Shown: positions 1,977 to 59,101 of the stretch, one piece after another | Layout of the letters: each line of letters opens with the position of its first letter | Position numbering within the stretch: the first letter of the stretch is position 1 | NCBI GenBank assembly: GCA_947623725.1 | Contig: CANQHI010000005.1 | Location: 1-59,148, forward strand | Length of the DNA stretch: 59,148 bases | From: an uncultured Clostridia bacterium | GTDB lineage: Bacteria; Bacillota; Clostridia; TANB77; CAG-508 | Reading direction: 5' to 3' | Translations under genes and position numbers: made by a program | Notes under the pieces: model-generated | What the model was told of the DNA's origin: nothing | Database searches by the model: none | Seen by the model: the letters and a program-made list of their open reading frames with translations, nothing else

Positions 1977-3092
1977 CCGTCCTTCTTTTCCAACAAATAT
2001 TGCTTTTTGTCTTCTTCCACTTATATTTAAAAGCATTGCTATCATAATAAAATTGCTCAAAAGCGAACTTCCTCCATAACTAACAAATGGAAGTGGAACT
2101 CCTGTTATTGGCAGTAATCCCATAGTCATTCCAATGTTTTCTATCATGTGAAAGAAAAGTATTCCTGAAATTCCTGCCGCAATTAATGCACCTAAATCAT
2201 CTTTTGCAGTTTTAGCAACATACAGTGATTTTGTAACTAACACAACATAAAGTATTATTACAGATCCTGCAACTATAAATCCCATTTCTTCACCTATAAC
2301 AGAAAATATAAAGTCTGTAGATTTAGGATACAAGAAACCCAGTTGTGTTTGATTACCTTTTAATAATCCCATTCCTAAAAGTTCTCCTGCCCCTATTGCA
2401 ATCTTTGATTGTGTTAGGTTATACCCAGAACCTCTAGGATCTAAATCAGGATTTAAAAATACATCTATTCTCTTTTTTGCATGGTCTGGCAAAACAAATT
2501 TATATAAAAGCGGAATTGCTATAGCAATTAGTATAGCTGATATTATAATATATCTTTTATCTATACCACCAACAAATAACATAAACAAAAATGCTATTAA
2601 AAATGCTGCTGCAGTTCCATAGTCTGGTTGCTTAACTATCAACGCTAATGGAATTGCTATTATTAGAAAAAGTATAATTAACCTTGTTGGTCTACTTATT
2701 TCTTTTTCACCTTTTTTCTTCATTCTAGACATTATAAATGCTAAAAAAATTACTATAATTATTTTGGCAAATTCAGATGGCTGTATTGAAAATGTTTTAA
2801 AGTTATACCAACTTGTTGCACCAGATATTGGTGCAGTAAACAGTACTCCTATTAAGCTTAATATAATTAAAACATATAGTATAGGAGATATTTTAGCAAT
2901 TGTATCATAATCTATGAGTGTAAATATCAATAAAAATGGAATACTTATACCTGTCCACATTAATTGCTTTCTAAATTCTTCTTGATTTGTACTTTCAGTT
3001 GCTGAATAAATTGCAAATAATCCTATTATTACTAATAGGATTGTGCATATTAATATCCACCATTCAAGATTTTTTGTAATTTTTTTCTTCAT
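1977..3092 (-). CDS. rodA: SEDS-family protein (FtsW/RodA/SpoVE), the N-terminal module of the fused ORF 987..3092
   Basis: Polytopic membrane protein with QPDYGTA and LPITGVPLPFVSYGGSS motifs. Sits directly downstream of minD-minE as in many Firmicutes. It runs in frame into dus. Confidence 0.8.
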
Positions 3093-8842: not shown

Positions 8843-9039
8843 TTTTTATTAATTAAAAAGCTTAATAAAAAAACTATAAATCTTATAACTCAACTTTTTC
8901 AATGAGTTTATAAAATTTATAGTTTTTTATTTGTTATTAAATTGTAATAATTTTATTTTTCTAAAATCTTGTTAAAATATTATATTTATGATAAATTTTA
9001 TTTATATTCATTTTTATTAAGCTTTTTAATTAATTATAA
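8843..9039. promoter_or_regulatory. Putative invertible segment (switch L1) bounded by inverted arm-core-arm sites
   Basis: Site 8843-8871 is TTTTTATTAA/TTAAAAAGC/TTAATAAAAA. Site 9011-9039 is TTTTTATTAA/GCTTTTTAA/TTAATTATAA. They form a 24-nt perfect inverted repeat. The interior holds hairpin 8868-8928 and the promoter-like TTGTTA-17-TAAATT (8969-8997, + strand). Confidence 0.55.
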
Positions 9040-9065: not shown

Positions 9066-10320
9066 TTAATTATCTACTACTAGCTTAAAACTAACAACAC
9101 CATCTGTTTCATTTTTTTCTAATCTATAACCACTTGATGTCAAATCAATAGAAACCATTGGTCGAAGTGAATTTTGTGCACCAACTTCATATCCGATGTG
9201 CAGTACATACATTCGCACCTGCAACTCGATATGCATCAGTAAAATAGAATACAGCTTGTAATCCAAAGTCACAATTATCATCATATAAATGAACATAACG
9301 CCCTGCCAAGTAATAACTAACACCAAAATAATCTAAACCATCCTCTTTTTTTAATAACAAATCATAATATTTAGGATTTATAAATTCACTTTGTCTATTA
9401 AGATAATCATGTCCATAGAATGATTCTCTAAATGTTAAATTACTATTTCCCGTTTCATTATTAGTTTTATATCCATTCTCTTGTTCCCACATCAGGCATT
9501 CTTTATCACTTCCATTCTCTGTACCATCAACCTCATTATATTCATACATCCATTTTGAATCATATTCTTCCCACATTTTAGGATATTTTAGACTTGTATA
9601 TGTTGTTTTACTTCCTCCAAAATGCATCTTTCCTTCATCATTTTCAAACCAACCACTAGGATCATACTTATATTTTCTATAATCATAATTGCTTACCTTT
9701 TGTATATCACTTCTTCTTAAATTTGCTACACTTATTCCATTTTTCATTTTACCATTTTCATCATATTGTCCATAACATTGTCTACATATCTCATTTATTG
9801 CCCATACGCCATTATTATATCCTGTTGCTCCTCTTAATGTTAAGGTTTCATTTGTTGGTCTACTTGATATTAATCTTATTGTCTTTGTATATTTATTATA
9901 ATCCCAGATTCTCCAATCCAAGTCTTCTGTTGTAAATTTTTGATCTCCATTTTCTTCTGCATTTACAATTGTATTACCATCATTATCTTGTTGTGAAGTT
10001 AATCCTGATGTTATACTTTTTATTATAAATGAACTGGTATCATTTTTTTCTATTGGTTCATATCCTTCTACATAACATCCTACATAGTCATTATAATCTA
10101 TTGATATCTCATCTAACTCTTCTGCTATACTATCCAATGCTAATTGTTCTTGTTTTTCTGACTCTTGATATTCTTTTACTGCCTTTTTTGCCATTTTAAA
10201 CAATCCATTTTGCCCTAATGCTGTAGTTAAAGTTACTCCTGCTAGAATCAATAATAATATTATTGTTATTACCAAAGCTACCAATGTAATACCTTTTTCT
10301 TTATAATTTACTTTTCTCAT
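9066..10320 (-). pseudogene. Pilin-like-anchored protein, paralog 2, frame broken near 9193-9195
   Basis: Same N-terminus (MRKVNYKEKGITLVALVITIILLLILAGVTLTTALGQNGLF). Frame A stops at 9187. Frame B (9066..9326) supplies the family C-terminus ...NSLRPMVSIDLTSSGYRLEK..., which matches paralog 3. Removing one base at CAT-CGG-ATA joins them. Confidence 0.7.
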
Positions 10321-10346
10321 CCTTTGCACCTCTAACTTCATTAATT

Positions 10347-10567
10347 TTTTTATTAATCTAAAAACTTAATAAAAAAAATAATTAAACATTTATAGACCTT
10401 GTATTATAGATTCGAAGCTAGAATCCAGTTAAATTTTTTATAAAAATTTAACTAAAATTTTGGTCAATAAAGTTTAATTATTTTTTATTTTATACTTGTT
10501 TAAATATTTATGTTATGATAATATTCTTATATATAAAATTTTTATTAAGTTTTTAGATTAATAATTT
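10347..10567. promoter_or_regulatory. Putative invertible segment (switch L2)
   Basis: Site 10347-10375 is TTTTTATTAA/TCTAAAAAC/TTAATAAAAA. Site 10539-10567 is TTTTTATTAA/GTTTTTAGA/TTAATAATTT. They form a 26-nt perfect inverted repeat. Promoter-like TTGTTT-17-TAATAT with TGn lies at 10496-10524 (+). Confidence 0.55.
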
Positions 10568-10968
10568 TATGGTGCCGGATTAATTTTTATTTCTTTAGGC
10601 TTTATTTTTTTTACATTTTTAGATAATTCATATGTTTGATTCTCATTCCATCTCATAACTTTTATATTTTTATAAATATCAAGTACTTCTTGATACTTAT
10701 CGCGTTCTTCTTCCCAAACTGAATCTGGAATTTTATCAAAAGCATCAAACATTTTTTCAGCTTCTGCTAAATATATCACTTGTTCTTGTGGAGACATTTT
10801 GTCATATTTTTTTGCAAATTCTGCAAGATTATCTAGACTAGCATTTGCTTTAATAAATGTAAAAAAATCTTTAACTTTAATGCCAGCCATTTGTATTTGC
10901 ATAACAGCCATTACAATTAAAATAACTATGAAAATTAATAATAAAAATATTATTGCTAAAATAGTCAT
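10567..10968 (-). CDS. Hypothetical N-terminally anchored protein
   Basis: 133-aa ORF with a hydrophobic N-terminus. No recognisable family. Confidence 0.5.
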   Translation of the reverse strand: MTILAIIFLLLIFIVILIVMAVMQIQMAGIKVKDFFTFIKANASLDNLAEFAKKYDKMSPQEQVIYLAEAEKMFDAFDKIPDSVWEEERDKYQEVLDIYKNIKVMRWNENQTYELSKNVKKIKPKEIKINPAP

Positions 10969-20385: not shown

Positions 20386-21204
20386 TTAATAACTTGTCCA
20401 ATAATAATATAAAATATTATTATCTATATCATAAACTCCTATTTCCCATCCGGTTGCTTCTTCATCTGTAAAATGATGTTTTTTATATTCATCACTTGTT
20501 CTGCACACTTTTTCATAGTGATAATATCCATTTTCTATTGAAAGTACTTCTTCATTGTATTCAAAATCATCTAATTTTTCATCTTCTAGTCTATTCTTGT
20601 TCCACTTTGGACTTTGTTCTAATGTTTTTATTACTTCTTTTCCTTGTTCATCTGTAAATTGATATGTATAATAATCTAAACCATCACCCTGAGGACCACC
20701 TCTTACACTATATATTTCTCTTGTTTTATAATTATTTGTTTTTATACCTAAAATCTCACTATAATTTTTATGATGATTAAAAGGACCATTTTCAAAATAA
20801 TATAGTTTTGCATTTTTTAAATCAAATATGGCATATCCCTTCTCATAATAATATAAATCTTCTCTATCTATTTCTACTACATAATCATCTCTAATTTCAT
20901 AAAACTCCTTCATTATATATTCATAATATTTATTTTTACTCCATATATCACTATTTTCTAATTGTTTTCTAAAAGTATCCATACTATCACTATAATAGTT
21001 TTTTATTTTATATACCTTATATTTTCCAAACCTGTCAAAACCATATTTCGTACAATATTCTATATTAATATCTTCTATTTGTAATCCCAAGTTTTTATAA
21101 TCTGTGTCACCTTTTATTTTATAAAAAAATATAGATAAATGAGAAATAATTATAACAATTATAATTATTAATAATATATATATAATTATCTTTTTATTTT
21201 TCAT
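20386..21204 (-). CDS. Hypothetical N-terminally anchored protein
   Basis: 272-aa ORF with one TM. Tyr/Glu/Lys-rich with no recognisable domain. Confidence 0.5.
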   Translation of the reverse strand: MKNKKIIIYILLIIIIVIIISHLSIFFYKIKGDTDYKNLGLQIEDINIEYCTKYGFDRFGKYKVYKIKNYYSDSMDTFRKQLENSDIWSKNKYYEYIMKEFYEIRDDYVVEIDREDLYYYEKGYAIFDLKNAKLYYFENGPFNHHKNYSEILGIKTNNYKTREIYSVRGGPQGDGLDYYTYQFTDEQGKEVIKTLEQSPKWNKNRLEDEKLDDFEYNEEVLSIENGYYHYEKVCRTSDEYKKHHFTDEEATGWEIGVYDIDNNILYYYWTSY

Positions 21205-21230
21205 ATTTTCTCCTTGTTTAATAAAAGTTA

Positions 21231-22304
21231 TTATTTTATTACAAAATTATTCTTTTGTACTTTTATTGTAACTTTATATGACTTTATAACTCCATATTTA
21301 CTAGAAACAACTCCAAAATTGTTTAGTATGCTTGAAAATATACTAATTAGTAATGATTTATTAGATGTTACATATTCTTTTAAATCTGTAAAATCTGTAA
21401 AATCATAAGTATCTTCAATTACCATATTTACTTTCCAAGTATTATCTAAGTTTTTTTCAATTTCTATACTTGTTGGAGAACCATGTATAGCAAATAATAA
21501 ATCTTTATTATTAAATTCAATTATACAATCTTCATTATTTTCACTATTATCCTTAAATTTATCTTTTTCACTACAATATTTTTTTATAAGTTCTTTTATT
21601 TTATTATCAAATTCTTCACTTTCTAGTATATCTTCAATAACTTCTTTATCATTAATCAATAAATCTTGTGGTTGCTTTCCAAATAAAGATAATGAATGCG
21701 ATAATAATTTAGCTGAAAGTTTCATATTTGCTAATAATCCTCCAACAACCACAACTTGCCAAAATGTATATTGCATTGCATAAAAAACGGTATAAGCAAT
21801 AGGAGAGTTTTTCTTAGTTAAATCAAATATAAAACTCATACTTTTTATAAAGTTCTCTGCTACATCTTTATCTACTTCTTCCCAATTAGTTTTTTTAGCT
21901 TCTTTTAATAATTCATTAAATTTTTGTGTATAATTAAACAATTTGTATATTTCATTTAGTGAAAACGACATCGTCTCTATTATATTTTTTGAAAAAGTTT
22001 TGATATTTTTTATATCATTAGAAACTTTTTCTTTTACATCATTTAAAGCTTCATAGTTCATCATGTTTAGATACGTTAATGCAATATATTTTTGAGCTAA
22101 AACATATTTTTTCTTTTTACTAAGAAAAAACTTATGATTTTTCCATGCTATTCTAGTACATAAATACAATTCTTTATTCCATATTATTCTAGGTGATTTA
22201 GCAAATCCCAATAATTCATATAAATTATCTAGGCATCCTCTTCCAAACATTTCATATTTATAATTATATGGTCTATTACATAATAAACATCTTTTTTCTT
22301 CCAT
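21231..22304 (-). CDS. Hypothetical protein
   Basis: 357-aa ORF with an N-terminal CLLCNRP...GRGC motif. No family recognised. Confidence 0.5.
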   Translation of the reverse strand: MEEKRCLLCNRPYNYKYEMFGRGCLDNLYELLGFAKSPRIIWNKELYLCTRIAWKNHKFFLSKKKKYVLAQKYIALTYLNMMNYEALNDVKEKVSNDIKNIKTFSKNIIETMSFSLNEIYKLFNYTQKFNELLKEAKKTNWEEVDKDVAENFIKSMSFIFDLTKKNSPIAYTVFYAMQYTFWQVVVVGGLLANMKLSAKLLSHSLSLFGKQPQDLLINDKEVIEDILESEEFDNKIKELIKKYCSEKDKFKDNSENNEDCIIEFNNKDLLFAIHGSPTSIEIEKNLDNTWKVNMVIEDTYDFTDFTDLKEYVTSNKSLLISIFSSILNNFGVVSSKYGVIKSYKVTIKVQKNNFVIK

Positions 22305-22327
22305 TTTTAATACTCATTTCTTACCAT

Positions 22328-22423
22328 TTATTTTTGTTTATTCATTATATTTGATATTTGTTCTTTTAACTCATTTATATAGTTTAATATCTTTGTTAAT
22401 ATTATATTATCTTTACTTTTCAT
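22328..22423 (-). pseudogene. Truncated HEPN/DUF86-like toxin remnant (31 codons)
   Basis: Its ATG overlaps the MNT stop. Translation MKSKDNIILTKILNYINELKEQISNIMNKQK resembles the N-terminus of DUF86 HEPN partners of MNT, then stops. Hand-translated. Confidence 0.4.
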
Positions 22424-22721
22424 ATACTATTACTCCTGTTCTTTCTATTTCCTTTTCAATTTTAGAATTTTTATTTATTTCTATTTTCTCTATTACATCA
22501 ACTTCTTTATTTAATTTTTCTTGTATCTTTCCAACTATTGCATAAAATTTTAATCCTTTAACTTTTCCTTTACTATCTAATAGTATATCTATGTCACTAT
22601 TTTGATTTGGATTTTTCTTCGCATATGATCCAAATAATATCGCTTTTTCAACTTCTGTATTACTAAGTATTTCATATAATATTGCTTTTATTTCATCAAT
22701 TGAATATATTTTTGTTGTCAT
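22413..22721 (-). CDS. Nucleotidyltransferase-domain protein (MNT-type antitoxin-like)
   Basis: ILFGSYAKKNPNQNSDIDILLD is a minimal nucleotidyltransferase motif. Confidence 0.75.
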   Translation of the reverse strand: MTTKIYSIDEIKAILYEILSNTEVEKAILFGSYAKKNPNQNSDIDILLDSKGKVKGLKFYAIVGKIQEKLNKEVDVIEKIEINKNSKIEKEIERTGVIVYEK

Positions 22722-22851
22722 TTTTTTCACACACCTTTCTTTTTATTATTATATCATATTTTATAATATAATTTCTTTTTATAAAGTTCTGATACACTTT
22801 TATTTACTTATTTTCAATTATTTTTTATCTCTTTTCTTATCTTACTATTTT

Positions 22852-24048
22852 TTAATTTATTACACTAGAAATAGGTATAATATAATTCTTTTCATCTATT
22901 TTCATTAGTTTATCATATAAACAAATAATTCCACCATTTCCTATTTTCATATTTGTTTTTTCAAGATGTTTAAAACTTTTTATCATATCTTTTCTAGGAT
23001 TTGCTGTTTTCTTTATTACTAATGGGTATAATGTGTTATTCTTAAAAATAATTAAATCGATTTCTTCCGTTTCTTTATTTCTAAAATGTGATATTTCTAA
23101 ATTTATTCCTTTATTTTCATATGACTTTATAAGTTCTGAAATTACATACGATTCAAAAAAATTGTCTGATAAATCACTCAATTGTAATGTTCTTGCACTT
23201 TCCCAATTTGCTAGATAACAAGCTAATCCTAAATCCATAAATATTATTTTAGGCATATGAGTAAGTCTTTTTATTTTATTTGATGAATATGGTTCTAATA
23301 AATATACAAGTCCTGTACTTACTAATATTGAAAACCAATCTTTAATTGTATTTACTGAAACTCCTACATCATTTGCAATATCTGAATAATTTAAATTTGT
23401 ACCTGTTCTTATTGCAACAGCCCTCATAAATTTTTTAAATGCCTCTACATTGCCTATTTTTTTTATATCTTTTTCTATATATTTGTCAATATATGAATAA
23501 TAAAAGTCATTTCTATCCATATTTTCTATATCATATAATTCTGGCATTCCTCCATTGAAAATTCGTTCAAATATTTCATTTACATCTATATATTTATTCT
23601 GTTTCAGATTATCTGGATCAAAAATTTCTTTTCTTGTATTTCTCATAATTTCGCTATATGTAAAACTATTCATTTTAACTATACCAGCTCTATTTGCAAG
23701 TGATTCTGTAACATTTTTCATAAGATCAAATAATTGAGAACCAGACAACCAATATTGTCCTCTTGTCTTATCCTTATCAACTTTCATTTTTATATATGGA
23801 AGTAGCTCTGGAGCATATTGTACTTCATCAATAAAAAGTGGTGCAGGATATGAATCTAAAAATATTTTTGGATTTTCTTTTGCTTCTCTTCTTAAGATTT
23901 CATCTTCTAATGAAATTTTAGTCATATTTTCTGGTATTACACTTTCAAGCAAAGTTGTTTTTCCAACTTTTCTTGGTCCTGTTACCACTAATACTTTGAA
24001 TGTATCATTAATTTTTTTTATTCGTTCTTTTACCTCTCTTTCATACAT
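22852..24048 (-). CDS. AAA-family ATPase with a DUF4143-like C-terminus
   Basis: VVTGPRKVGKTTLL Walker A. 398 aa, an architecture common in mobile or accessory DNA. Confidence 0.7.
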   Translation of the reverse strand: MYEREVKERIKKINDTFKVLVVTGPRKVGKTTLLESVIPENMTKISLEDEILRREAKENPKIFLDSYPAPLFIDEVQYAPELLPYIKMKVDKDKTRGQYWLSGSQLFDLMKNVTESLANRAGIVKMNSFTYSEIMRNTRKEIFDPDNLKQNKYIDVNEIFERIFNGGMPELYDIENMDRNDFYYSYIDKYIEKDIKKIGNVEAFKKFMRAVAIRTGTNLNYSDIANDVGVSVNTIKDWFSILVSTGLVYLLEPYSSNKIKRLTHMPKIIFMDLGLACYLANWESARTLQLSDLSDNFFESYVISELIKSYENKGINLEISHFRNKETEEIDLIIFKNNTLYPLVIKKTANPRKDMIKSFKHLEKTNMKIGNGGIICLYDKLMKIDEKNYIIPISSVIN

Positions 24049-24093
24049 TTTTTTATTCCCCCAAATAACATATATTTATATTTTATATTTTCG

Positions 24094-24159
24094 TTGCAAA
24101 AAAGTCAATATTATTATTGCAAAAAAGTCAATATGTTTGCTTAAAAAAAGTCAAATATT
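24094..24159. repeat. Three direct repeats with 23-bp periodicity upstream of the ATPase gene
   Basis: ttgcaaaaaagtcaatat at 24094 and 24117, and ttgcttaaaaaaagtcaaatat at 24137. The GTCAA cores lie at 24104, 24127 and 24150. Confidence 0.8.
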
Positions 24160-24259
24160 ATATTTCATATTAGACATTTATTTCATTACAAAAAAAAATT
24201 TAAACTACTATACTTTTTAATTTATAGCAATTTAAATTTTTCCATATATAAATTATATT

Positions 24260-25189
24260 TTAAGCTAAAATTTTTGCTTCAATATTTCTAATTTTATATT
24301 TTCCATTTTCTTCAATAAAATCATATAAGCTTTTATCTAAGCTGTCACTGTTTTGTTTTAAATCAGTTGTATAATAAAAATTAATTTTGTCTATTTTTAC
24401 GCCATTTGTAACTAAAGCTTTAAAAGTTTCTGCCATGTGTCTTTCATCTTCACATATAAAAACAAGTTGTGGTATCGAAATGAAATCTGAATCTCCAGGA
24501 TTAAAATTATCATAAAAATCTTTCCATAAATTCATTCTTTCGACTAATCTTTTTTCCCAATTTTCATTTCTTCTAACTACTTCATATACAAAACTTATTT
24601 TTCTATTATTTGCAACTAAATCAATACTTAATGTAGGTTTAAACTGTTTACTAAGAGTTTTTGCTTGAATTACTGGTTTTAGTTTATAATCTGAAAAAGT
24701 TTTTACTTTTCTCATATATGCAATAACTAATTGATTTCCAGCAAGTTTTTTCTTTATCATTTCAACAGGTTTTGCATTATCACTTGGTTGCCATTTGCAT
24801 TCTACCTCTCTTGATGTAAGCAAATATTTTCCCATCTTCTCCATGCAGTAAACTCTATATATTCCACTTCCTTCTGGTGATGTAAAATAATATCTTGTAA
24901 GTATTTTGCTTCTAATTAATTGGTCTAATTTATTGTTTAATTTATCTTGAGTTTTTATATCTGCTTTTTGAAGTTGTAATAATTGAAACATTTGTCTTGA
25001 TGTTAAAAATTCAAATTTATTTATTAATTCTAAAATTTGAAAATGTATTTCATTTATATGTCCTACATTTATCTTCTGTATAATCTGATTCATTGAGACA
25101 TAACCGTCTTTTCCATCAAATACTTTTATCTCCCCTTCTCTCATTCTAAAAGGTGAGACTGTTGTTTTAATTTCATTATCTGCTAACAT
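24260..25189 (-). CDS. Replication-relaxation family protein (plasmid/ICE-type)
   Basis: 309-aa ORF whose N-terminal winged-helix-like region and overall pattern resemble the replication-relaxation family. ATG follows AGGAGGAAAAA. Confidence 0.55.
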   Translation of the reverse strand: MLADNEIKTTVSPFRMREGEIKVFDGKDGYVSMNQIIQKINVGHINEIHFQILELINKFEFLTSRQMFQLLQLQKADIKTQDKLNNKLDQLIRSKILTRYYFTSPEGSGIYRVYCMEKMGKYLLTSREVECKWQPSDNAKPVEMIKKKLAGNQLVIAYMRKVKTFSDYKLKPVIQAKTLSKQFKPTLSIDLVANNRKISFVYEVVRRNENWEKRLVERMNLWKDFYDNFNPGDSDFISIPQLVFICEDERHMAETFKALVTNGVKIDKINFYYTTDLKQNSDSLDKSLYDFIEENGKYKIRNIEAKILA

Positions 25190-36317: not shown

Positions 36318-36346
36318 ATTTTATCAATACTAAAGTATTAAGTCAA
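36318..36346 (-). promoter_or_regulatory. Promoter-like element between switch L3 and gene 3
   Basis: The minus strand has TTGACT, a 17-nt spacer and TAAAAT with an upstream TGn. The same block is conserved at 58850-58878. Confidence 0.45.
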
Positions 36347-36372: not shown

Positions 36373-36569
36373 TTTTTATTAAGTAATAAACTTAATAAAA
36401 AAGCTATAAATTTTATAATCCATATATTTCAACGAATTAATAAGATTCATAACTTTTATTTTTTACTAATTTGTAATAATTTTCTTTATCTATATTATTG
36501 CTTAACTGCTTATATTTATTATATAAATTTATTTATACTATTTTTATTAAGTTTATTACTTAATTATTT
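36373..36569. promoter_or_regulatory. Putative invertible segment (switch L3)
   Basis: Site 36373-36401 is TTTTTATTAA/GTAATAAAC/TTAATAAAAA. Site 36541-36569 is TTTTTATTAA/GTTTATTAC/TTAATTATTT. They form a 24-nt perfect inverted repeat. Promoter-like TTGCTT-18-TATAAA lies at 36498-36527 (+). Confidence 0.55.
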
Positions 36570-48703: not shown

Positions 48704-49543
48704 TTAATCTATTAGCTTTTTTAATTCATTTTCCTCTATTCCAACTAATTCTGATATATAACTAATATCTTTTCCTTCTTTAATTAATTTTTTTGCTATT
48801 TCTAACTTTCCTTTTTTATAACCATATAGTTCTATTGAATGTTCATCTCTTATTGCTTTTTCTCTTAAAAATTGCAATCTCTCCATCTTCTCATCTTCAC
48901 TTAATTCTTTTACTGTTATTACACATTTTTCTATTTCTTTATTTTCTTTCATTATCTCCTTAACCTCCTTTGAGTTCGGATTATCTAGAAATAGCATCCA
49001 TTGTGCTTTCTTATTTTTCTTGTCTTTTTCATACTCTTTGAGTGCTTTCCTTAAATTTATTATATTTATTTCTATTAGCTCTGTCAATATCTTTTCACGA
49101 TTTTTCGTCTCTATTAGTTTCCACTTTGTTTCCATTTCATCTATATCTTTTAGTTCTTCTATTTCAAAATCTATTATTGCTATTAATACTGTCCTTTTTA
49201 CATTTTCATATGGCTCTCCTCTTTTAAATTGATCTGAATACAGTCTTGTTGCATAATATAATATTCTCTCTATAAAATTTCCTTTATTTAATAATTGTAC
49301 TTCTACATCTACTTTCTCTTTATTATTAATTTCCAGTTCTAAGTCTAATATTCCTAATTTATCATTCGGTCTATTTCTTATTAATTCTTTATCTTCATTT
49401 ATTTTTATACTTTCTATTTTTTCTTCTAATAGTACTTCTGCAAATGCTTTCGTTATTTCTGGATTGTTTTTACTAAATAAACTTTGAAAAACAACATCTA
49501 TCTTTGGTATTAATAAATTATTTTTTCCATTTGTCATAGGCAT
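48704..49543 (-). CDS. Rpn/YhgA-like PD-(D/E)XK nuclease family protein (putative transposase-like)
   Basis: IPKIDVVFQSLF...LGILDLELE...VDVEVQL...YYATRLY pattern. Confidence 0.7.
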   Translation of the reverse strand: MPMTNGKNNLLIPKIDVVFQSLFSKNNPEITKAFAEVLLEEKIESIKINEDKELIRNRPNDKLGILDLELEINNKEKVDVEVQLLNKGNFIERILYYATRLYSDQFKRGEPYENVKRTVLIAIIDFEIEELKDIDEMETKWKLIETKNREKILTELIEINIINLRKALKEYEKDKKNKKAQWMLFLDNPNSKEVKEIMKENKEIEKCVITVKELSEDEKMERLQFLREKAIRDEHSIELYGYKKGKLEIAKKLIKEGKDISYISELVGIEENELKKLID

Positions 49544-58849: not shown

Positions 58850-58878
58850 ATTTTATTATTTATAAAGTATTAAGTCAA
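58850..58878 (-). promoter_or_regulatory. Promoter-like element between switch L4 and gene 4
   Basis: The minus strand has TTGACT, a 17-nt spacer and TAAAAT. It is homologous to 36318-36346. Confidence 0.45.
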
Positions 58879-58904: not shown

Positions 58905-59101
58905 ATTTTATTAAGTAGAAAGATTAATAAAAAAGTATAAAATCTTGCAATTCATTTATTCCAATGATTATGCAAAATTTTATACTTTACTTTTTTACGA
59001 TTTTGTAATAATTTTTATCTTTATTTTTTTCTTATAATTGACTATATTATGCTATATTTTATATATATAATTTTTTTATTAATCTTTCTAATTAATAATA
59101 T
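58905..59101. promoter_or_regulatory. Putative invertible segment (switch L4)
   Basis: Site 58905-58933 is ATTTTATTAA/GTAGAAAGA/TTAATAAAAA. Site 59073-59101 is TTTTTATTAA/TCTTTCTAA/TTAATAATAT. 25 of 26 positions are inverted-repeat matches. Promoter-like TTGACT-18-TATATA lies at 59038-59067 (+). Confidence 0.5.

Follow-up and report, generated by a model that had tools for sequence, protein, structure and literature searches.

Do the two inverted repeats in front of a frame-broken pilin-like gene delimit a DNA segment that can invert, and what would inversion do to the expression of that gene? The locus in question, termed L2, lies in a stretch of 59,148 nt that was analysed as a whole and is called the window below. 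The window has a GC content of approximately 26% and encodes ClpC/McsB/McsA/CtsR, MinD/E, a Spo0A-like regulator and SpoVA proteins; its source is a sporulating Firmicute. In one part of it (20386-25189) the GC content goes down to 22-23% and there are ORFs without a family match, next to genes for an AAA_14/DUF4143 ATPase, a nucleotidyltransferase and a protein with a weak Replic_Relax match. This part may be a mobile or defence island. As for L2, we put the probability that it is a genuine fimS-type promoter inverton, served by an unlinked recombinase, at about 0.6. We note that this makes it a well-supported prediction rather than a demonstrated switch.

L2 is a perfect 26-nt inverted repeat with arms at 10350-10375 and 10539-10564 and 163 bp between them. 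The gene-proximal site (10347-10375) consists of TTTTTATTAA, TCTAAAAAC and TTAATAAAAA in succession, the distal site (10539-10567) of TTTTTATTAA, GTTTTTAGA and TTAATAATTT. These readings and the 26-nt/163-bp geometry go back to a first-pass annotation of the sequence, and both letters and coordinates agreed when they were re-read in the window. The nested repeats that it described within L2 are present as well (10367-10390/10469-10492, 24 nt, 88%; 10427-10438/10442-10453, 12 nt, 100%). The parts of the putative switch are:

10350 to 10375, no strand: putative gene-proximal recombination site, i.e. outer arm, core and inner arm, then AAA
10350 to 10357: outer arm of the proximal site, TTATTAAT
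10358 to 10364: 7-nt core of the proximal site, CTAAAAA, an exact match to the core of the distal site
10365 to 10372: inner arm of the proximal site, CTTAATAA, palindromic with the outer arm
10376 to 10538, no strand: putative invertible segment, 163 bp as compared to 139-140 bp in the sister switches
10406 to 10428: 23-nt insertion found in L2 only, palindromic (GATTC...GAATC), a gap in the alignment of L1, L3 and L4
10539 to 10564, no strand: putative distal recombination site, i.e. TTT, then inner arm, core and outer arm
10542 to 10549: inner arm of the distal site, TTATTAAG
10550 to 10556: core of the distal site, TTTTTAG
10557 to 10564: outer arm of the distal site, ATTAATAA

The repeat greatly exceeds what chance would produce. 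When the window was shuffled 200 times with its dinucleotides preserved, perfect repeats at a spacing of 90-260 nt reached 17 nt at most, as opposed to 26 nt in the real sequence, and arms of at least 16 nt at this spacing appeared in 3 of the 200 shuffles vs four pairs in the real window. The palindromic motif TTATTAA-N9-TTAATAA was observed 6 times in the window, with 0.02 occurrences expected.

Exactly four strong repeat pairs with such spacing are found in the 59 kb, and they define the switches L1 to L4. There are also exactly four genes with a pilin-like N-terminus, and all of these, and no others, carry a switch upstream:

8846 to 9036: switch L1, core TAAAAAG, upstream of paralog P1 (7353-8792, minus strand)
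10350 to 10564: switch L2, core CTAAAAA, upstream of gene 2 (P2)
9187 to 10322, minus strand: body of gene 2 (P2), 377 codons, pilin-like N-terminus MRKVNYKEKGITLVALVITIILLLILAG, with a C-terminal tail in another frame (9173-9069)
36376 to 36564: switch L3, core TAATAAA, upstream of the intact paralog P3 (34910-36202, minus strand)
58908 to 59098: switch L4, core TAGAAAG, upstream of paralog P4 (57800-58792, minus strand)

The four switches can be aligned end to end, and their orientation relative to their own genes is identical in all cases. Between the inner arms there are 163 nt in L2, as against 139 nt in the three others. Four dispersed switches over 50 kb that share one repeat consensus correspond to what is seen in regulons of a master recombinase. 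A short AT-rich unit of which several copies exist, each with terminal inverted repeats, is at the same time reminiscent of a miniature inverted-repeat transposable element (MITE), here inserted upstream of pilin-like genes. We hold this origin to be extremely improbable. The copies are confined to the upstream regions of one gene family, where their place and orientation are constant, the likeness of their interiors is only partial (mean column identity ~62% over the four switch regions), and their terminal cores match within a copy and differ between copies. In other words, the picture of near-identical copies at unrelated loci with target-site duplications was not found. A two-site pattern scan of JGI metagenomes speaks against a MITE as well, as it returned 11 matches, all of them chance matches with unmatched cores.

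The construction of the sites was investigated in a set of 12 distinct switches, designated type A, which comprises L1-L4 of the window as well as L006, L009, L078, L094 (two switches), L100 and L107 (two switches). Each end of a type A switch is a 23-nt site made up of an outer arm TTATTAAK, an asymmetric 7-nt core and an inner arm MTTAATAA, after which AAA follows. The arms are 8 nt each and palindromic within the site. The inner arm with the A-run (TTAATAAAAA) is found in 12 of 12 switches across genomes, bar one base, and this invariance points to recognition by one protein. The pairwise identity between switches at the core positions (-7 to -1) is 0.36-1.00; the cores at the two ends of a switch are nevertheless identical in all 12 cases, though they differ between switches. 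At position -8 and in the outer flank the likeness within a switch is no higher than that between switches. The description of L2 in the first-pass annotation as having the same arms and a different core is thus true of the four switches of the window and of eight elsewhere. Judged from the sequences, the covariation of the cores fits a crossover region that is matched between partner sites, and neither an operator nor a transposon terminal repeat. Core sites with a matched crossover region, a trait of promoter invertons, make up the repeats of the 12 type A switches and also those of four out of four switches of a second type (type B, see below).

The length of the matched core bears on the class of the enzyme. 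Serine invertases need only the central dinucleotide, whereas the matched core comprises 7 bp, which suggests a tyrosine recombinase; the enzyme is probably of the tyrosine type. A more tentative idea, which we consider possible and still rather doubtful, is that one unlinked recombinase recognizes the identical arms while the 7-bp cores are switch-specific in the manner of heterospecific lox/FRT sites, so that the genes flip independently and give rise to combinatorial surface variation in a Gram-positive gut lineage that is uncultured. If this is true, there would be no deletions or large inversions between switches, and the +1 frame break that recurs toward the 3' ends of the genes (see below) would be a possible second layer of variation. 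Against a strict specificity of the cores, two adjacent switches in L107 share the core GTAAAAA, and recombination between these neighbours would be possible. Two switches also stand 1.5 kb apart in L118 (786-980 and 2246-2440); their promoter ends are near-identical and their cores different.

The interior of L2 has two conspicuous elements, and the gene upstream of the switch is transcribed toward them:

10496 to 10524, plus strand: conserved outward-facing candidate promoter, -35 TTGTTT (10496-10501) and -10 TAATAT (10519-10524)
10373 to 10486, minus strand: terminator-like structure directly upstream of gene 2, -31.2 kcal/mol, z = -5.95
10567 to 10968, minus strand: upstream gene for a 133-aa membrane protein, the transcript of which would extend into the switch and reach the hairpin

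The candidate promoter of L2 has a 17-nt spacer that ends in TATG-A (extended -10), and 14 nt separate it from the distal repeat. When 15 switches were aligned by anchoring them on the distal repeat, the pattern TTGnnn-17-(TATGn)TAtAtT was found at a constant offset from the repeat in most of them, i.e. 14-15 nt lie between the end of the -10 box and the distal repeat, and the direction is away from the gene. Consensus promoter scans gave results at chance level in DNA of 26% GC, and the conserved element scored below the scan threshold, so its function as a promoter is deduced from its conservation. Consensus scans for promoters and terminators were discarded as a line of evidence, as they do not discriminate in DNA of this composition. 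The same holds for the minus-strand TTAACT-18-TATAAT (10432 to 10403) that had been put forward as a promoter pointing toward the gene: it is located inside the L2-only insertion, and 4 promoter-like matches stand against 4.3 expected, which does not sustain the assignment. One may speculate that, if it were active, its transcript would be without the 5' half of the outer stem of the hairpin and could read into gene 2.

In the terminator-like structure of L2 an A-run and a U-run form a long outer stem, with two small hairpins inside it and a U-tract after it. The equivalent hairpins have z values of -6.5 (L1), -4.0 (L3) and -7.0 (L4), and compensatory changes were seen in 7 of 15 pairs across 11 switches. 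As the hairpin is symmetric, its A-run standing opposite a U-run, it is predicted to terminate transcripts that arrive from either side. The gene upstream of L2 has its stop codon (10567) only 2 nt from the distal repeat, so the hairpin is likely to be the terminator of the upstream gene as well. A terminator switch of the cwpV type was also considered as a candidate; it was rejected since the hairpin is equivalent on both strands and the upstream gene has its stop codon right at the distal repeat.

A strongly structured interior (z ~ -6) raises the question whether the repeats themselves could pair with each other and form the base of a large leader or terminator structure, i.e. whether L2 is a structural RNA or DNA element in which the covariation of the ends reflects base pairing. 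A conserved helix would indeed give end-to-end covariation too, and the sole within-switch mismatch in the matched region (G vs A in L009) would be a G-U pair. However, a helix explains neither why the arms are internally palindromic with invariant half-sites across genomes, nor why the matching stops exactly at the boundary of core and outer arm. Moreover, there was no Rfam match, and a paired stem does not account for the two orientations of the type B switches. We regard a purely structural role as very unlikely.

The distance between the repeat and gene 2 is short: the ATG is at 10322-10320, the Shine-Dalgarno sequence AGAGGTG at 10335-10329, and ~14 nt lie between the repeat and the latter. 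This bears out the earlier remark that the gap between L2 and gene 2 is too short for a fixed promoter. In most related loci the proximal repeat and the ATG are likewise only ~25-40 nt apart. The repeats thus flank a short intergenic segment immediately beside the gene, as is the case in promoter invertons. The first-pass annotation had held that the ON or OFF state could not be read from the sequence; the comparison of the switches, by contrast, reads OFF, since the sole conserved candidate promoter faces away from the gene and a terminator hairpin stands before it. A promoter that faces the wrong way from 140 nt off, combined with a terminator in front of the gene, makes a layout that is functional only if the segment inverts, and we infer from this comparison that the assembled state of L2 is OFF.

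L3 and L4 have, in addition, a promoter-like TTGACT-17-TAAAAT between the switch and the gene (36318-36346 and 58850-58878, both on the minus strand). This element is absent from L2, its counterpart in the relative L006 is diverged, and it would permit expression that is independent of the switch.

The orientation of the switches was compared across assemblies. At the level of the assembly consensus, all type A switches have an identical orientation relative to the gene, in ~14 distinct loci and ~30 locus-by-sample assemblies, and some of the loci are represented by 4-6 samples apiece. A second, independent contig of L2 (L001) is 100% identical and has the same orientation, and in the ortholog of L3 (L100) the core and the dodecin-spoVAC-spoVAD neighbours are unchanged. 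Exact-protein look-ups for P2, P3 and P4 returned no record. Eight further protein look-ups were made; five led to more type A switches, all in the one orientation, and two to loci without a switch. The look-up that returned L093 gave a fragment of P3 only, without a switch. Scans of IMG/VR gave one truncated OFF-like copy (L105) and one chance match inside a phage integrase. A single invariant orientation had earlier been named as an observation that would overturn the idea of a switch. One orientation is indeed what all type A assemblies have, and to that extent the objection stands; as these are consensus sequences, it does not extend to a low-frequency ON subpopulation. Contigs that end at or in a repeat (L098, L109, L110 and L116) were considered as a sign of inversion and set aside, since their end points are ambiguous and fit cleanly neither the branching caused by inversion nor paralog repeats.

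Both orientations are found in the type B switches, which precede members of this gene family in further MAGs of Clostridia. They have 9-nt arms (TTCTTAGAG/CTCTAAGAA), a 7-nt core and an interior of 140-167 nt, and the cores are matched within 4 of 4 switches and different in each:

L007, 3484 to 3686: type B switch
L023, 1836 to 2058: type B switch
L070, 747 to 948: type B switch
L074, 1939 to 2153: type B switch

In L023, L070 and L074 a canonical TTGAC(T/A)-17-TA..AT promoter adjoins the distal repeat and points away from the gene. The interior of L007 is inverted relative to L023 and L074 (alignment score 35/34 reversed vs 19/18 forward), and its TTGACT-17-TAAAAT faces the gene from a position 16 nt from the proximal repeat. 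Upstream of L007 there is an ABC transporter gene on the same strand, so the family gene is the sole target of this promoter. The type B orientations among genomes support, as far as sequence comparison goes, the inversion of this kind of architecture.

These data have to be weighed against a regulatory region that is fixed and never inverts, the 23-bp palindromes being operators at which a dimeric regulator loops ~190 bp around a promoter and a terminator. Such a region would be in agreement with the invariant orientation in ~30 assemblies, with sites that are themselves palindromic, with the lack of a recombinase nearby, and with the fact that some family members are conventionally controlled, e.g. 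L122, where a divergent HTH gene is found and a palindrome lies over the promoter. On the other hand, the spacer of an operator needs no exact reverse-complement match, yet 12 of 12 switches have one, though the spacers vary from switch to switch. It is also difficult to see a fixed region in which the sole conserved candidate promoter faces away from the gene and a terminator precedes the gene. Type B, which is equivalent in architecture, occurs in both orientations. We therefore judge a fixed region to be unlikely.

The enzyme that would invert L2 was sought in the window and near the related switches. Pfam and NCBIfam searches of ~45 ORFs and motif scans of six frames revealed neither a tyrosine nor a serine recombinase in the 59 kb, and there was no recombinase within 4 kb of any related switch. 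A PD-(D/E)XK_2 protein (48704-49543) was considered as an invertase and rejected, as it is an Rpn/transposase_31-like nuclease and not of an invertase type. Its gene is the sole recombination-related one in the window, and it adjoins genes for a sortase and a WG-repeat protein.

The products of the four regulated genes begin with ...KEKGITL(V/I)ALVITIIILLILAG... and are conserved over ~60 N-terminal residues, while their globular parts are divergent. No Pfam or NCBIfam family was found above threshold for the full-length paralogs. When the N-terminal 60 aa were searched separately, PF07963 (prepilin N_methyl) gave 22.2 bits for P4 and 19.6 bits for P2 at a cutoff of 21.2. The Glu at +5 of type IV pilins is replaced, i.e. 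the sequence is KG|ITLVA with Ala at position +5, and Pfam/NCBIfam and motif scans found no peptidase or assembly genes of a pilus machinery in the window. The AlphaFold model of P3 (pLDDT 85.6) has a long N-terminal helix and a beta-rich domain; a Foldseek search of the PDB with this model gave no match (best E-value 0.03), and a comparison of the regulated protein with PDB sequences gave no significant one (best E-value 0.028). The family is large, with 936 protein matches, none of which is named among the 120 matches listed, and with at least 401 relatives in species-representative genomes, nearly all of them MAGs of uncultured gut Clostridia (rabbit, chicken, human). Family members without a switch exist as well (L122, 640-800; L111, ~900-1000). 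In L122 a fixed TTGACT-17-TAAGAT promoter is overlapped by the palindrome ACACGTATTACGTGT and adjoins a divergent HTH regulator gene.

Gene 2 is frame-broken, as had been reported: the homology to paralog 3 runs in one frame from 10332 to 9250, and the last 35 residues are in another (9173 to 9069). A frame break of this kind recurs in 7 of 15 family loci (P2, 9069-9260; L003; L014; L100, ~3040-3090; L107, ~2224-2406; L111; L118, ~2040-2090). It is +1 in 6 of the 7 and shifts the last 40-60 codons with the LRPIVSI... motif. At each locus 3-5 independent samples have an identical break, and in L100 it falls at a T6 run. Since it is recurrent and stable across samples, it may not mean the death of the gene; it could be due to recoding, slipped-strand variation or a tolerated truncation.

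The 23-nt insertion and the frame break suggest that the L2 copy could be decaying. Carried further, this would make L2 a relic, i.e. a non-functional member of an invertible family that is locked or that regulates a dead gene. The insertion, which is seen in L2 only, makes the interior longer (163 nt instead of 139 nt) and alters the hairpin, and the broken frame of gene 2 agrees with this too. Nonetheless, the repeat of L2 is the longest perfect one among the four switches (26/26), the candidate promoter and the outer stem of the terminator are intact, and breaks like that of gene 2 are stable across independent samples in nearly half of the family loci. In our view a dead switch is quite unlikely.

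The reading that L2 has the architecture of a site-specific inversion switch, which was first made from the window itself, is supported by the matched cores, by a repeat beyond chance and by a family of like switches. For a promoter inverton we propose the following course of events. The 163-bp segment would be bounded by two inverted recombinase core sites, with an outward-reading sigma-A promoter (extended -10) beside one repeat and a two-way intrinsic terminator beside the other. In the assembled orientation the terminator would stand just before the ribosome-binding site of gene 2 with the promoter firing away, and the gene would be OFF. A recombinase encoded outside the window, probably of the tyrosine type, would exchange strands within the matched 7-bp cores. 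Inversion would then place the promoter ~60 nt before the start codon (ON) and the -10 box at ~10390-10395 on the minus strand. Transcription is predicted to begin ~7 nt past TAATAT and to give a 5'UTR of ~60 nt that includes the repeat, and the terminator would insulate the promoter from the upstream gene. The junctions of the inverted state are predicted to read, on the plus strand, ...CTAAAAACTTAATAAAAA joined to TTTTATATATAAGAATATTATC, and GGTCTATAAATGTTTAATTATTT joined to TTTTTATTAAGTTTTTAG. The same enzyme would serve L1, L3 and L4, so that a cell could vary the pilin-like surface proteins that it displays.

If confirmed, these switches would form a new inverton family with a site grammar of its own, i.e. 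8-nt arms, a switch-specific 7-bp core and a built-in promoter with a two-way terminator. They would place under inverton control a large and uncharacterised set of surface proteins of the pilin-like kind, which is widespread among uncultured Clostridia of the gut, and would suggest that such lineages use phase-variable surface display as a colonisation strategy. The sites would also provide a compact set of possibly orthogonal recombination sites.

Among known systems, L2 is predicted to resemble E. coli fimS (FimB/FimE) and the promoter invertons found by PhaseFinder/DeepInverton, in that a short intergenic segment between inverted repeats carries the promoter of the surface-structure gene beside it and one orientation is silent. 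Sites in the style of tyrosine recombinases would be a further common feature. In fimS the repeats have 9 bp, the segment has 314 bp, and the recombinase genes are linked to it. Switches of the L2 type, in contrast, have 26-nt sites with palindromic arms and a 7-nt core, a segment of 139-163 bp, a two-way terminator and no linked recombinase, and their inversion is deduced. We found no report in the literature of invertons upstream of pilin-like genes in Clostridia.

The switches of C. difficile that are served by RecV are similar to L2 in that they occur in low-GC Clostridia and have repeats of at least 21 bp around ~150-200 bp close to a start codon. RecV is an unlinked tyrosine recombinase that serves several switches, cwpV/Cdi1, flgB/Cdi4 and others (PMC5903667). 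In the published genome cwpV is OFF, with ~5% of cells being ON; its promoter is outside the switch and the OFF state is brought about by an orientation-specific terminator (PMC2784873), whereas L2 has a symmetric hairpin and a conserved candidate promoter inside the segment. Most repeats of the C. difficile switches are mutually unrelated (PMC5903667), unlike the type A switches, which share one arm consensus. The Mpi system of B. fragilis comprises an unlinked master recombinase and many dispersed polysaccharide promoter switches with a common repeat consensus, and it gives combinatorial surface variation (PMC5903667). Mpi is, however, a serine recombinase that acts on capsule loci in Bacteroidota, while the 7-bp cores of L2 point to a tyrosine enzyme, in an uncultured lineage of Clostridia and with pilin-like targets. 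The 'inverton group 139' of Clostridia can be likened to L2 by its geometry. Its inversion was measured, and the example from Clostridium sp. D5 has 26-nt repeats around ~205 bp (PMC11892184). Both are from gut Clostridia; nearly all members of group 139 have a tyrosine recombinase gene within 5 kb (PMC11892184), and L2 differs in having none within the window. By analogy with these systems, L2 would work like a fimS-type promoter inverton within a multi-site regulon similar to those of RecV and Mpi.
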